A stretch of 55,008 nt of DNA from a virus (lineage: Duplodnaviria > Heunggongvirae > Uroviricota > Caudoviricetes): IMG/VR virus record IMGVR_UViG_2925891887_000003. One strand, 5' to 3'. How positions within the stretch are numbered: the first letter of the stretch is position 1; each line of letters starts with the position of its first letter. Shown in pieces: positions 11,296-20,186 of this stretch. The position numbers and the translations under genes were made by a program. The notes under the pieces are model-generated. The model had not been told where the DNA came from, did no database searches, and saw only the letters and a list, made by a program, of their open reading frames with translations.

Positions 11296-11353
11296 AAAGC
11301 CTTGCAAGCCATTGCGAGGCCTTATGTGTCTCAGTTTTGTCCCACCTTGTATT
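11296..11353 (+). repeat. ~58-bp direct repeat, copy A (near the prophage end)
   Basis: aaagccttgcaagccattgcgaggccttatgtgtctcagttttgtcccac...; near-identical copy at 20129-20186; contains an internal hairpin GCCTTGC / GCGAGGC. Confidence 0.7.
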
Positions 11354-11568
11354 ACGACTTGCATAGCCAATGAAGATAAACGTGACGACAAACGGCGCAG
11401 CAGTCTTCTTTTCCTTCATACTTTCCCCACCCAGCATGCATACCTTTATGCCATAACTGAAGTTTATGTCTGTTATGAGCGAATTGCAGACATTAACGTT
11501 TGGTTAAGGGACGGGCTGTAGCCCGTCCCAGTGAGCGAAGCTTAATTTAGTCCGTGTGCAGCGCTTTG

Positions 11569-12999
11569 TTAGCCAAAACTGATGTGATTTTTAGTTAGAT
11601 CTCTATATCTCTTATCGTTGTGTACTTTATGGAGGATCGTTTGGTTGGCGATCAAAAAATCTATAATTTCTTGAATTCTTTCGCTACGAGCATTGGCTCT
11701 TAACAAAGTCAAAACGCTTACCATATGTTGCTGGCAGTATTTGTTGTCTAAATTCACTCGCACTTCATTAGAGTGCATTGCTATAACTGTATTGATAATG
11801 TTTTGATCGCCAAGCATGCCAAAAAACTGATCATACAAAGGTCGTCCCGCCGGAGAAACACCAGTATTATATGGTATTCCTTTACCAACACGACAAATCA
11901 AAACTGTTTTTATAAGCTTATGAACCCTCTCTAAAGGTATGTCATTTTCAGTCTTTAAATACGAAAGAATCTTCCGCATATGAGGGGGTTCATTATAAAA
12001 GTTATCCCAAGCATACCTAGCCTCTAAGAGATCGTCGGCATGGCCGTCCAGTGATATAATTCTAGAGTCTAATGATTGATAACGATTACCATCACAAAAC
12101 GTAAAAAACTCAATACCTAAAGCATGTTTCTCGTTGTGAAGATTGTTCTTGTATCCGTCTAGCGTCACGCCGAGCTTGTATTTTACGTTATCACTGCTTT
12201 TATTCCAGATATGCGGAGCAAAAAGAGCGATATTTTTTCTGACAACATTTCCTGTTGAATCAGCTGTATATATGCCGAAAATACTATTGAGTAGATTGTC
12301 AGTATTCTGAAGCGACAGATCATTCAAAGGTCTTTCCATGCTATGAATTGTGGCTTCATCAAGAACATCAGTGGATCTTTTTAGATTCTCAAGGAATGAT
12401 TTTATTTGTATGGCAGACGCGGACGGTTTGTCGTTCAAAATATCTTGAACGCATGTTTGGAGCCAGCCAAGAAGTTCAAAAGCATTTATGGAGTATGAAT
12501 TTGGGTGCGAAGCACCAATGTCATTCCTCATAGTCAATATATGATTGAGCTTGGTGTAAACAACGTCAGATATTAATTCAAGTTTTCGGCAAGTATTAAT
12601 AAGGGTGTTGTCTTTTAAACCAGAAAGATCTTCTTCGGTAGAATAAAGCTCTCTACGTCCTCCTCCAACTGCAGCATCAAAGAACATATCGAGGCCATAA
12701 ACTACTACTTTTTCCCTTAAATTCAGTACAACTTCATTCCAAACATAATTTAACGATGCATCAAATAGTCCTATAGCCGCACCAGCAACGAACTTTGATA
12801 AATATCGAGCATCTCTTTTTACCTCAGCAGGTAAAGAATCTATGAATGTGGGGAGGTTTTTTTCAATAATTTGGCGCTCAGGGAGAGAGGCAATTATATT
12901 TTCGGTCGGCAAACCAAGATAGGATAAATATCCTTCAAATTTTGTTGTATCTGTGGAAAGTACCCCTGTTCCAGGTTTTGCAATCAATTCTGAACTCAT
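11569..12999 (-). CDS. hypothetical 476-aa protein, AT-rich moron at the prophage end
   Basis: Long AT-rich ORF with ATG start; no motif I recognise. Strong 10-bp GC hairpin (11509-11531) downstream. Confidence 0.7.
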   Translation of the reverse strand: MSSELIAKPGTGVLSTDTTKFEGYLSYLGLPTENIIASLPERQIIEKNLPTFIDSLPAEVKRDARYLSKFVAGAAIGLFDASLNYVWNEVVLNLREKVVVYGLDMFFDAAVGGGRRELYSTEEDLSGLKDNTLINTCRKLELISDVVYTKLNHILTMRNDIGASHPNSYSINAFELLGWLQTCVQDILNDKPSASAIQIKSFLENLKRSTDVLDEATIHSMERPLNDLSLQNTDNLLNSIFGIYTADSTGNVVRKNIALFAPHIWNKSSDNVKYKLGVTLDGYKNNLHNEKHALGIEFFTFCDGNRYQSLDSRIISLDGHADDLLEARYAWDNFYNEPPHMRKILSYLKTENDIPLERVHKLIKTVLICRVGKGIPYNTGVSPAGRPLYDQFFGMLGDQNIINTVIAMHSNEVRVNLDNKYCQQHMVSVLTLLRANARSERIQEIIDFLIANQTILHKVHNDKRYRDLTKNHISFG

Positions 13000-13615
13000 A
13001 CGATTATTTCCTTATCTGGTTGAAGGCTAGAGAACAGCTAACGCTTTTAGCAGGGGCGCGACGTTAGGAGCGTCCCATACCTAAACTTGTTAAGGTATTT
13101 GTGAGCAAACGCCACCAGTATTTGGGTTTAGATCCAATACATACTTCATGCGAGTACAACCTATCCCGAATCAAGCAGGAGTCATTTCTCCCGCACTTAG
13201 GGTTTGGACATTTCATGTTCCCTACCCATGGTGAATTCGATTCGTAATGTACGATCTTCATAAAGCCTTAACAATTTAATAGAAGGCTTTTTTGCCCGCA
13301 AGTGGAACATTTTTCTGCCTTCTTTCCTGATCTTTACTCACATCAAACTAACGCTGATATACCTCTATTTCAACAGGTTTTTCTGAAATCAATAAATTTG
13401 CGTCCGGCAAACTTTATACAGCCAGTACGCGAGTTGTTCTTGATTTACTTAAGCTGGACACATGGGAATTATCCAGCGGCTTGTGCTAGTAAAAGAAGAA
13501 ATTATCAGGCATTTACCACAACGCCCAATGCCCGCTTTTGGCACAAAGCAGACGCCCACTCTCACGCGAATGCTTTGCCCTTGACTTGCCAACAACCGTA
13601 TCGCTTGCTCCGCAA

Positions 13616-18355: not shown

Positions 18356-18905
18356 GTATTCAATTGATAAGATTAAACCGCAGCACGTTATTGCATACAA
18401 CGTGTCTGCGGTTTCAACTCCGCCGGCCCCCCCCAATCATGATTGGACAGCACTTGCAAAAAAAGAAATTAGTATTCTCAGCAGGACACCGGTCAGATAG
18501 TGCGGCAGATCAATGTCTGGTTAATATTGATGACCGCTGCCCGCTGATTCTATTGCCGAAACTGTGCGGGAAAAGATGTGGCAAGATATTGTTGGTAAAA
18601 AATTCTCAGTGACTTTATGCCAGCAAATCAGTTTGCCTGGCATCCAGTATCATGTGCGGTGGATAATGTCAAAAAACATGGGGAGTCGATTAAACAGGTA
18701 TAATCGTTAAAAACCTTCAAACTCCAGGCAAAACCCTATTTCATAGAACATGTACTTTCATCTGGTATACATGAACGAATTATGACTGCGTTAGTAAAAT
18801 TACCTTGGTTAAATTACAGGCAGAGATATATGTTCCAGTCCAGTGCTTTTTCGTTTACAATATTTATCTTTCATTATCACTTGACTTTATTAAAAGAGGT
18901 TCGTT

Positions 18906-19973
18906 GTGACGAATGTTTTTGGGAAGAGAATATATACCCTGGATGTTCTGAGAGGATTTGCCGCACTTTCCGTTGTGTTATGGCATTGGCAACATTTTTT
19001 TATGAAAAAGAATGCTGCATCTGACATAATCATAAACCGCCAACCTTTTTATGAATTTTTTTCCGTCTTTTATCATTACGGTTTATATGCTGTCGAATTG
19101 TTTTTTATGATTTCTGGATTCATATTTTTTTATCTATACGCTGACAATATACACAGCAATAAAACCTCAGCAAAAACTTTTATAGTTAACCGTGTCAGTA
19201 GATTATATCCACTTTATATATTTACATTTGCTGTCGTGGCAATATTGCAAATTATTTTCTTTAAAAGTCATAATTATTTTTTTGTTTATCCTATGAATGA
19301 CATTTACCATGCCATTCTGAATTTATTGATGATTCAATCATGGGGATTTGAGCGAGGTTGGTCCTTCAACGCCCCGACATGGTCCGTGTCGATTGAAGTA
19401 CTTATGTACATGATATTTTTTATATTATGCAAGTTCACATCAAAAACAACATTCATATCAATTTTAATAGTTGCATTATCGTACTACTTTTTCAAAATTA
19501 ACAATCCCATAATGATCGGCGCATTCTCTTTCTTTATTGGTGGTCTGACCTATAAAATTACGATTGCGGCCATAAAAAATATTAGCGCAAAGTTATTTTT
19601 TATTTTTGCTTGTGTTTTTCTATTGATCTCATGGGGAGTTATCTTTACCCTGCAAGTAGCAGATATATTCTCAATTATCTTATTCGGGTTTACCTCCATA
19701 ATCTTTTTCCTTGTATCAATTAGCGCAATACGAAACGATTTTGGGAAAAAAATTGAATGGTTGGGTGATATCAGTTATTCATCTTATCTTTTACATTTTC
19801 CTTTGCAAATCATTGTTGTTTATTTAGCTGACAAGATTGGCTATGGACGCGATCTTTTTTACAGTCCCAAGGTATTCATTTTATTCATGCTTACATTAAT
19901 GGCAATTAGCTATATGTCATATATATTCATTGAAAAACCATCGCAACAATTCATCCGAGATAAATTTCATTAA
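18906..19973 (+). CDS. acyltransferase family 3 membrane protein (O-antigen/LPS acetylase-like moron)
   Basis: 355 aa, GTG start, ~10 TM segments; N-terminal LDVLRGFAALSVVLWH is the acyltransferase-3 signature. Very AT-rich. Confidence 0.75.
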   Translation: MTNVFGKRIYTLDVLRGFAALSVVLWHWQHFFMKKNAASDIIINRQPFYEFFSVFYHYGLYAVELFFMISGFIFFYLYADNIHSNKTSAKTFIVNRVSRLYPLYIFTFAVVAILQIIFFKSHNYFFVYPMNDIYHAILNLLMIQSWGFERGWSFNAPTWSVSIEVLMYMIFFILCKFTSKTTFISILIVALSYYFFKINNPIMIGAFSFFIGGLTYKITIAAIKNISAKLFFIFACVFLLISWGVIFTLQVADIFSIILFGFTSIIFFLVSISAIRNDFGKKIEWLGDISYSSYLLHFPLQIIVVYLADKIGYGRDLFYSPKVFILFMLTLMAISYMSYIFIEKPSQQFIRDKFH

Positions 19974-20128
19974 GTAAAGTCACTTTGCAATGATTAGAGT
20001 CAACGACTATTACTTTGACTCTAATCACACTGCAGTTTATCCGTATGCTCTATATTCATAAAAATCGACATCAATATATAGAATGGAAATAAACGAAACC
20101 GCGTCACATCCTCAATACAGAAGCGTTC

Positions 20129-20186
20129 AAAGCCTTGCAAACCATTGCGAGGCTTTATGTGTCACAGTTTTGTCCTACTTTTATTA
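20129..20186 (+). repeat. ~58-bp direct repeat, copy B (just downstream of the tail fibre assembly gene)
   Basis: aaagccttgcaaaccattgcgaggctttatgtgtcacagttttgtcctac...; matches copy A at 11296-11353 with a few mismatches. Confidence 0.7.

Follow-up and report, generated by a model that had tools for sequence, protein, structure and literature searches.

A repeated hairpin unit in the accessory segment of an SfV-like prophage

We analyzed the 55,008 nucleotides (nt) of IMG/VR virus record IMGVR_UViG_2925891887_000003 (hereafter "the window"), with attention to the interval from 11.2 to 20.2 kb, where an SfV-like prophage (Mu-type tail) integrated at thrW has its accessory genes. Two copies of a short hairpin sequence, which we call unit E, lie towards the ends of this interval: E1 next to the attachment site (att) and E2 next to the tail fibre assembly gene (tfa). 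The features of the segment and of the prophage ends, including open reading frames (ORFs) with lengths in amino acids (aa), are as follows.

11172-11218, minus strand: att copy at the left prophage end, the 3' part of tRNA-Thr(CGT), thrW; 47 nt identical to 53565-53611
11285-11493, plus strand: "b-region leader" (E1 and some 140 nt more), with the left junction motif at its end; related to phage 21 and lambda-like phages (88.7%) and homologous to lambda 27520-27320
11296-11355, plus strand: unit E1, att-proximal copy, a conserved imperfect palindrome/hairpin
11569-12999, minus strand: 476-aa protein of unknown function (phrog_27609)
13064-13261, minus strand: 65-aa ORF, unknown
13616-14908, minus strand: DUF2254 membrane protein (Pfam E = 1.6e-92)
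14957-16960, minus strand: BCCT transporter, BetT-like (Pfam 3e-199; NCBIfam BetT subfamily, 752 bits)
17248-17520, plus strand: 90-aa ORF, unknown, with a hairpin inside it at 17358-17395
17531-18355, plus strand: PD-T4-3 anti-phage defence gene (LEM-3-like GIY-YIG; PADLOC 3.8e-140; Pfam)
18906-19973, plus strand: acyltransferase-3 (AT3) family membrane protein of the O-antigen-acetylating type (Pfam 1.4e-24)
20129-20188, plus strand: unit E2, the copy on the tail side; the acyltransferase and tfa genes converge on it
20234-20650, minus strand: tfa (Pfam Caudo_TAP)
20650-21576, minus strand: glycine-rich tail fibre protein (Pfam Gly_rich_2)
52387-53550, plus strand: SfV-type tyrosine integrase, transcribed towards att
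53565-53640, minus strand: full tRNA-Thr(CGT) gene, which contains the right-hand att copy (47-nt att match)

E1 (11296-11348) and E2 (20129-20181) are direct repeats that agree at 48 of 53 nt (91%), and BLAST extends the match to 60 nt at 90% identity (11296-11355 versus 20129-20187), with a longest perfect run of 12 bp. When a 47-nt pattern was searched with at most three mismatches, E1 and E2 were the only sites in the window, and 100 shuffles gave no match. E1 starts 78 nt past the 47-nt att repeat, and E2 ends 46 nt short of the tfa stop. On the plus strand, both copies fold into a hairpin of about -20 to -21.5 kcal/mol (z = -2.8 to -4.0). More generally, unit E is an imperfect palindrome of ~55 nt whose G+C-rich stem consists of a 9-bp inner and an 8-bp outer part (about -20 kcal/mol), and E1 and E2 fall in one subfamily of it. 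Rfam covariance models gave no match between 10500 and 21000 at E <= 1. The alignment, the shuffles and the folding of both copies thus bear out the ~58-bp direct repeats with a hairpin described in an earlier note on this DNA.

That note had also placed accessory cargo between tfa and att, which agrees with the gene content and with the variability of this slot among relatives. Its description of the cargo as "five mostly AT-rich morons" is no more than approximate: the E1-E2 interval has eight ORFs of at least 65 aa, with a G+C content from 31% (acyltransferase) to 51% (transporter). In gene order, an 86-aa ORF lies between PD-T4-3 and the AT3 acyltransferase. For the 476-aa protein, phrog_27609 alone matches; no Pfam, NCBIfam, PADLOC or PDB sequence match was obtained. 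Pfam, PADLOC and NCBIfam scans of the interval found no transposase or recombinase gene.

Separate distributions of the two copies and a recombinant origin

In related genomes, E1 and E2 are distributed independently. Over att plus E1 (11173-11344), identity to SfI/II/IV/V is 96-98%, the att copy at 11172-11218 matches the attP of SfI/SfII/SfIV/SfV, and counterparts of E1 occur in phage 21, HK542, epsilon34 and lambda as well. The block of PD-T4-3, AT3, E2, tfa and fibre genes is contiguous in about 46 Escherichia coli genomes. E2 alone is present in AH02 (a 43.7-kb circular record with a dusA-type integrase) and in LH09-a (at tRNA-Pro), and E1 alone in LR-06 and SRY149, which share the order att, E1, 476-aa gene, DUF2254, transporter, PD-T4-3 and then an invertase. 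Both copies are found in FDAARGOS_1277, L017 and L039, all at thrW and with other genes in between. From these comparisons, E1 belongs to the thrW int-attP module and E2 to the PD-T4-3/acyltransferase/tfa module.

To compare the window with LR-06 and LH09-a, we computed identity profiles in 100-nt steps. LH09-a matches the window at 100% over 17411 to about 20400. LR-06 shows 98-100% identity from 17211 at the latest to about 18010; over the whole of 11173-18416 the figure is 99.66%. Within the PD-T4-3 gene, over 17611-17910, both are 100% identical to the window. These profiles show that the window is a recombinant, with a crossover in the shared stretch of the 90-aa ORF and PD-T4-3. An E1-only prophage of the LR-06 type recombined with an E2-only phage of the LH09-a type, which left the two copies 8.8 kb apart. 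As such, the E1/E2 pair is the product of module joining rather than an insertion scar. Altogether, we consider it likely that the interval is a mosaic segment resembling the lambda b region, in which E1 and E2 were brought together by LR-06/LH09-a-type recombination and in which unit E may act as a terminator or insulator. Past PD-T4-3 in LR-06 (L003), a Gin/Pin-type invertase and an invertible tail-fibre segment (13244-15408 of that record) stand in place of the acyltransferase and E2.

The alternative is that one 8.8-kb module was inserted at a tfa-unit-att site, by target duplication or by recombination of unit with unit, so that E1 and E2 would delimit a discrete cargo able to move or to be excised. 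This is what the bracketing of accessory genes by direct repeats of the same subfamily would lead one to expect, and other lineages do have a single copy between a tail gene and attP (HK542, P22-like contigs). In addition, the 70 nt upstream of E2 resemble the spacer between att and E1 (score 29; shuffles averaged 19.7, and 43 of 2000 did as well), a mere hint that E2 may be an old att-adjacent copy. Nevertheless, we judge a single insertion to be improbable, and equally improbable its implication of a discrete cargo. Relatives carry either copy without the other, the interval is pieced together from at least three parts that are each distributed differently, the crossover falls inside the shared PD-T4-3 region, the longest perfect E1/E2 match is just 12 bp, and the scans of the interval gave no transposase or recombinase gene. 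Furthermore, the contiguous att-unit-tfa arrangement of the window's lineage, that is, its deletion or empty form, was seen in 0 of 5,426 complete E. coli genomes. For recent history the single insertion is already largely refuted; a deep ancestral duplication of unit E may still have occurred. A transposon or insertion sequence with target-site duplication was rejected, given the lack of a transposase or recombinase gene between the repeats, the length (53-60 nt) and imperfection of the repeats, the occurrence of each alone elsewhere and the lack of an empty site in the 5,426 E. coli genomes.

Of the earlier proposal that an insertion or recombination event built the region, recombination is therefore supported by the identity profiles, and a single 8.8-kb insertion bounded by the repeats is contradicted by relatives in which the copies are separate. 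The single-copy arrangement of tail gene, unit and attP that it suggested looking for exists in HK542 (at thrW) and P22-like contigs but was not seen for the lineage of the window in the 5,426 E. coli genomes. The E1-E2 interval does not behave as one variable unit either, since close relatives vary at 11483-17200. Direct repeats that flank prophage cargo, then, need not mean insertion.

The preferred reading of joined modules also fits what is seen around E1. The SfV-type homology (11173-11344) overlaps the phage-21-type homology (11285-11493), so that E1 is the overlap of two mosaics, and the mosaic joints coincide with the edges of unit E. Susskind and Botstein and, in 2001, Clark et al. 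are said to have described boundary or linker sequences at lambdoid module junctions in the context of modular evolution. Unit E resembles such sequences in being a short island of homology in otherwise unrelated DNA at mosaic joints; it differs in that the joint that created the window lies in the PD-T4-3 gene and not in unit E. Recombination at unit E itself may be surmised from the breakpoints.

In a wider context, the interval appears to correspond to the lambda b region in position, in variation of content and in scaffold homology. The b region and the moron loci of related phages (gtrABC of SfV, P22 and epsilon34; oac of Sf6 and Sf101) occupy the same position, between tail fibre or tailspike genes and attP, and hold variable, non-essential genes. 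Lambda shares the scaffold, with a unit at 27472-27518, a left junction at about 27340 and a right leader at 24349-24162. An AT3 acyltransferase is common to this segment and Sf101. Unlike in these loci, PD-T4-3, the BetT-like transporter, DUF2254 and phrog_27609 replace the gtr or ea genes here, and there are two copies of unit E, because two module types were joined. The region is thus an ordinary mosaic prophage accessory segment of known type. The conserved scaffold around unit E forms a slot in which genes for defence and surface modification accumulate (PD-T4-3, restriction-modification (RM), RES, SIR2-like, AT3, gtr), and unit E could therefore serve as a landmark for prophage accessory or defence cargo. 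By-products of the analysis are an unannotated conserved unit beside lambda sib and conserved junction palindromes around exchangeable cassettes; both are described below.

Unit E across phages and its possible function

Unit E is a widespread element of lambdoid, P22-like, HK97-like and SfV-like phages, located beyond attP, away from int. By itself it matches 80 phage records, among them SfI/II/IV/V, phage 21, lambda-like hybrids, HK542, mEp043, Sf101, BTP1, epsilon34 and g341c, and an exact-pattern scan of IMG/VR gave at least 120 stretches that carry it. In a scan of one genome per species, 28 matches were obtained, of which only about 8 are real (Escherichia, Shigella, Citrobacter). The earlier note had raised the possibility of a widespread intergenic element unrelated to this prophage; widespread it is, but it is a phage element. 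A check of K-12 e14 for an annotated copy gave none, and we found no description of unit E as a family in the literature searched.

For a census of its neighbours, 134 copies were oriented as on the window plus strand and the flanking proteins were classified. The 57 distinct upstream neighbours include 40 tyrosine integrases and 7 AT3 acyltransferases, and downstream neighbours are mostly P22-type tailspikes (18), AT3 acyltransferases (14) and GtrB (8); for many copies, a predicted prophage end is only a few hundred bases away. Individual phages agree with this distribution. The order is int, attP, unit E, gtrA in SfV and epsilon34, and int, attP (thrW), unit E and a convergent tail fibre gene in HK542. 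In Sf101, unit E lies 79 nt upstream of oacB, and in all of SfV, epsilon34 and Sf101 gtrA or oac begins about 80 nt downstream. Unit E accordingly stands at the border between the integration module and the accessory or tail genes.

The lambda copy (27472-27518, int-sense strand, nhmmer E = 7e-14) is unannotated and is located about 35 nt beyond the tI/sib hairpin; past it, about 130 nt are homologous to window 11345-11482. Like tI/sib, unit E is a hairpin downstream of int, on the same strand and beyond attP, in an order that is the same in SfV, epsilon34 and HK542. Since int of the window (plus strand) reads into att and E1 lies 78 nt beyond, the excised circle would carry int, attP, 78 nt and E1 on one strand; in the prophage, being beyond attP, the unit is separated from int. 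SfV-like phages have no other hairpin between attP and unit E. Unlike tI/sib, however, unit E is a separate sequence about 35 nt further on and lacks a canonical U-run, and we rejected its identification with sib/tI because lambda has both side by side. Here, then, is an unannotated element beside sib/tI that is conserved from lambda to SfV-like and P22-like phages.

With regard to function, we infer that unit E may work in both directions as a transcription terminator or insulator that separates the int side from the accessory or late-gene side. It typically lies between convergent transcription units (int versus tailspike or fibre genes; here, AT3 versus tfa). GenBank entries point the same way: the epsilon34 record has a [quoted passage not shown], and that of SfII a "terminator". 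Among 74 unique copies, the outer stem has a mean of 6.96 of 8 positions paired, compared with 2.7-5.1 in slid registers, and contains one compensatory pair (C-G in 50, T-A in 17, mismatched in 7). Folding of 75 unique copies on both strands gave means of -19.95 and -20.69 kcal/mol.

Several observations weigh against a terminator or insulator. The preferred folding strand differs by subfamily; the covariation is essentially that one pair, and the search pattern itself fixed much of the stem. The tail after the stem is T-rich but interrupted, a non-canonical U-run, and the scan flags E1 only, and weakly. In most copies the inner stem has a C.A mismatch on the int-sense strand. Lambda has tI about 35 nt upstream of its own copy, which lacks a T-rich tail, so that unit E would be unneeded there as an int terminator. 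Finally, the unpaired tail TGTGTC.C..TTTTGTC is strongly conserved, which a terminator leaves unaccounted for. We had also considered a strand-specific RNA structure, given that 69-72 of 74 copies have the outer stem paired on the int-sense strand, and 33-37 of 74 on the other; the idea was withdrawn because the 3' arm is all G/T, so that transitions in the 5' arm keep the pairing, and because there is no consistent strand preference (n = 75).

Because it is conserved, unit E may also offer phage recombinases a short stretch of homology for the joining of modules. Phage Rad52-like recombinases use short, diverged homology, and Red-beta has a minimum of about 30 bp (PMC3945230).

Two other functions were weighed against the terminator or insulator. 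Unit E might be a CII-type activator site (TTGC-N6-TTGC) or another operator, acting at a promoter for the genes about 80 nt downstream, where gtrA or oac starts in SfV, epsilon34 and Sf101. A perfect TTGC-N6-TTGC is present on the plus strand of both E1 and E2, the epsilon34 type has two or three phased TTGC on the minus strand, CII sites are annotated in phage 21, and an operator could account for the strong conservation of the unpaired tail. The authors of the epsilon34 study likewise noted TTGC-N6-TTGC sites and suggested that CII may activate the conversion cassette (PMC2629481). On the other hand, the palindrome by itself produces the TTGC repeats, which differ between subfamilies in strand and in perfection. 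No -10-like hexamer was seen at the lambda pRE/pI spacing, a promoter scan returned nothing at E1 or E2, and the window genes beside them face the wrong way. The absent -10 element and the inconsistent strand led us to reject a CII-dependent promoter, and we give little credence to an activator site or operator as a whole. Less probable still is that unit E is coding sequence, namely the 3' end of a small minus-strand gene of which E2 would be a truncated remnant. A 50-aa ORF (11285-11437, minus strand) does pass through E1 and is annotated as a coding sequence in phage 21 ("putative membrane protein") and in lambda-like records. However, it has no PHROG or Pfam family, an indel in lambda shifts the frame after about 17 codons, E2 contains in-frame stops, and the SfV, epsilon34 and P22-like copies keep unit E without the ORF. 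We rejected the small-ORF reading, as the ORF is not conserved across carriers.

Proposed exchangeable cassettes, junction motifs and the tandem satellite

The variation among close relatives is concentrated in one part of the interval. In thrW relatives with both copies of unit E, homology runs from att to 11482 and again from about 17200; the only part exchanged is 11483-17200, where these relatives have a lipase, GNAT or DUF6650 gene instead. Genes for RM, RES, FRG and SIR2-like proteins were found elsewhere. The motifs at the edges of this slot, with the related hairpins, are listed here (no strand assigned unless given).

11463-11494: left cassette junction TGTCTGTTATGAGCGA/ATTGCAGACATT; homology of L008, L017 and L039 stops at 11482, and plasmid copies start at 11467
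13530-13556: internal junction-like palindrome CCCGCTTTTGGCACAAAGCAGACGC, which divides the cassette in two
17199-17226: right cassette junction GCGTCTGCTCTTGGCACATAGCAGACC; homology of L008, L017 and L039 resumes at about 17200, and plasmid copies end at 17226
17203-17390, plus strand: right-junction leader, 85% identical over 189 nt to lambda 24349-24162 (between ea31 and ea47)
18379-18415: hairpin CCGCAGCACGTT..AACGTGTCTGCGG past PD-T4-3, where LR-06 homology ends

The three junction palindromes are related but imperfect, with the form GTCYG-N14-CRGAC, and the left and right motifs, if joined, would give a palindrome of about 54 bp. Their outer halves go with the backbone and their inner halves with the cassette. 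They recur in lambda and phage 21, on plasmids and in about 20 viral contigs; the left motif, in particular, occurs in lambda (about 27340), phage 21 and about 20 other loci, with different DNA after each. The homology of the right leader with lambda 24349-24162 indicates that ea59-ea31 occupy the equivalent slot.

The segment delimited by these motifs is also found outside prophages of this type. Specifically, 5.76 kb (11467-17226; 476-aa, 65-aa, DUF2254 and BetT-like genes) recur at 99.9% identity on many plasmids of E. coli and elsewhere in chromosomes. Plasmid copies (e.g., L005, p720632_72) are flanked by an integrase fragment and relBE, matches to their flanks come from Klebsiella, Enterobacter, Escherichia and Shigella plasmids, and the DNA directly outside the palindromes is unrelated.

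From the junction sites that flank lambda ea59-ea31, the 5.76-kb transporter cassette and its 99.9%-identical plasmid copies, one could argue for a cassette system with dedicated sites in lambdoid/SfV-like accessory regions, in which swaps occur at a split palindrome of ~54 bp; we hold this to be rather doubtful. It would have a left half ...GTCTGTTATGAGCGAGGAGCGGAAGTT and a right half AACGTCCGCTCCTGGCACATAGCAGAC..., with unit E and the CCGCAG...CTGCGG hairpins as punctuation, a reading for which we see only a small chance. Exchange at these sites, whether site-specific or directed by hairpins, would carry cassettes to plasmids too, which we consider similarly speculative; relaxed homologous recombination at the junctions could be the mechanism instead. 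A search of IMG/VR for an "empty" site with left and right junctions at 8-38 nt spacing found none, and no plasmids with the cassette flanks joined were found. A visual comparison of the junction motifs with integron cores and with sites of the dif/XerCD and Hin/Gin types gave no convincing match. An integron cassette array was rejected, as no IntI gene was found and the motifs lack GTTRRRY.

E. coli LD22-1 (L161) was considered as an empty site and rejected, the event being a microhomology deletion and not clean. In its thrW prophage, both junction motifs were lost by deletion at the short similarity ...CAGCAT/ACATAGCAG..., and the E1 leader abuts the right-junction leader, with an RM system and PD-T4-3 next.

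A second hairpin family, CCGCAGCACGTT...AACGTG.CTGCGG, is present at 17358-17395, after the right-junction leader, and at 18379-18415, after PD-T4-3, and resembles the lambda hairpin between tfa and ea47 (22575-22610). In L029, a copy of unit E stands exactly at the position of the window's second-family hairpin, and the hairpins thus look interchangeable. We propose that the interval is an array of separately exchangeable cassettes, [476-aa + 65-aa ORFs], [DUF2254 + BetT-like transporter], [90-aa ORF + PD-T4-3] and [AT3 acyltransferase], punctuated by short conserved hairpin sequences that would include unit E. Separately, a perfect 8-bp G+C-rich hairpin, ATGCCGCC-TCTGT-GGCGGCAT, lies at 14929-14949 between the transporter and DUF2254 genes, and the scan calls it terminator-like on both strands.

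To the left of the prophage, positions 1-11170 hold a P4-like satellite integrated in tandem at the same thrW att. Its recognizable genes are the following.

4-2385, minus strand: P4-like satellite primase
2893-3486, minus strand: Ash, accompanied by DUF5375
4569-5905, plus strand: two Psu-like genes
5805-6179, plus strand: Delta
6591-8630 (Drt3b) and 8634-9863 (Drt3a): DRT3 reverse-transcriptase defence system, between delta and the satellite int
9832-11010, minus strand: satellite integrase

A minus-strand integrase of 388-419 aa lies 220-300 bp upstream of unit E in about a dozen IMG/VR loci, and tandem occupancy therefore seems common.

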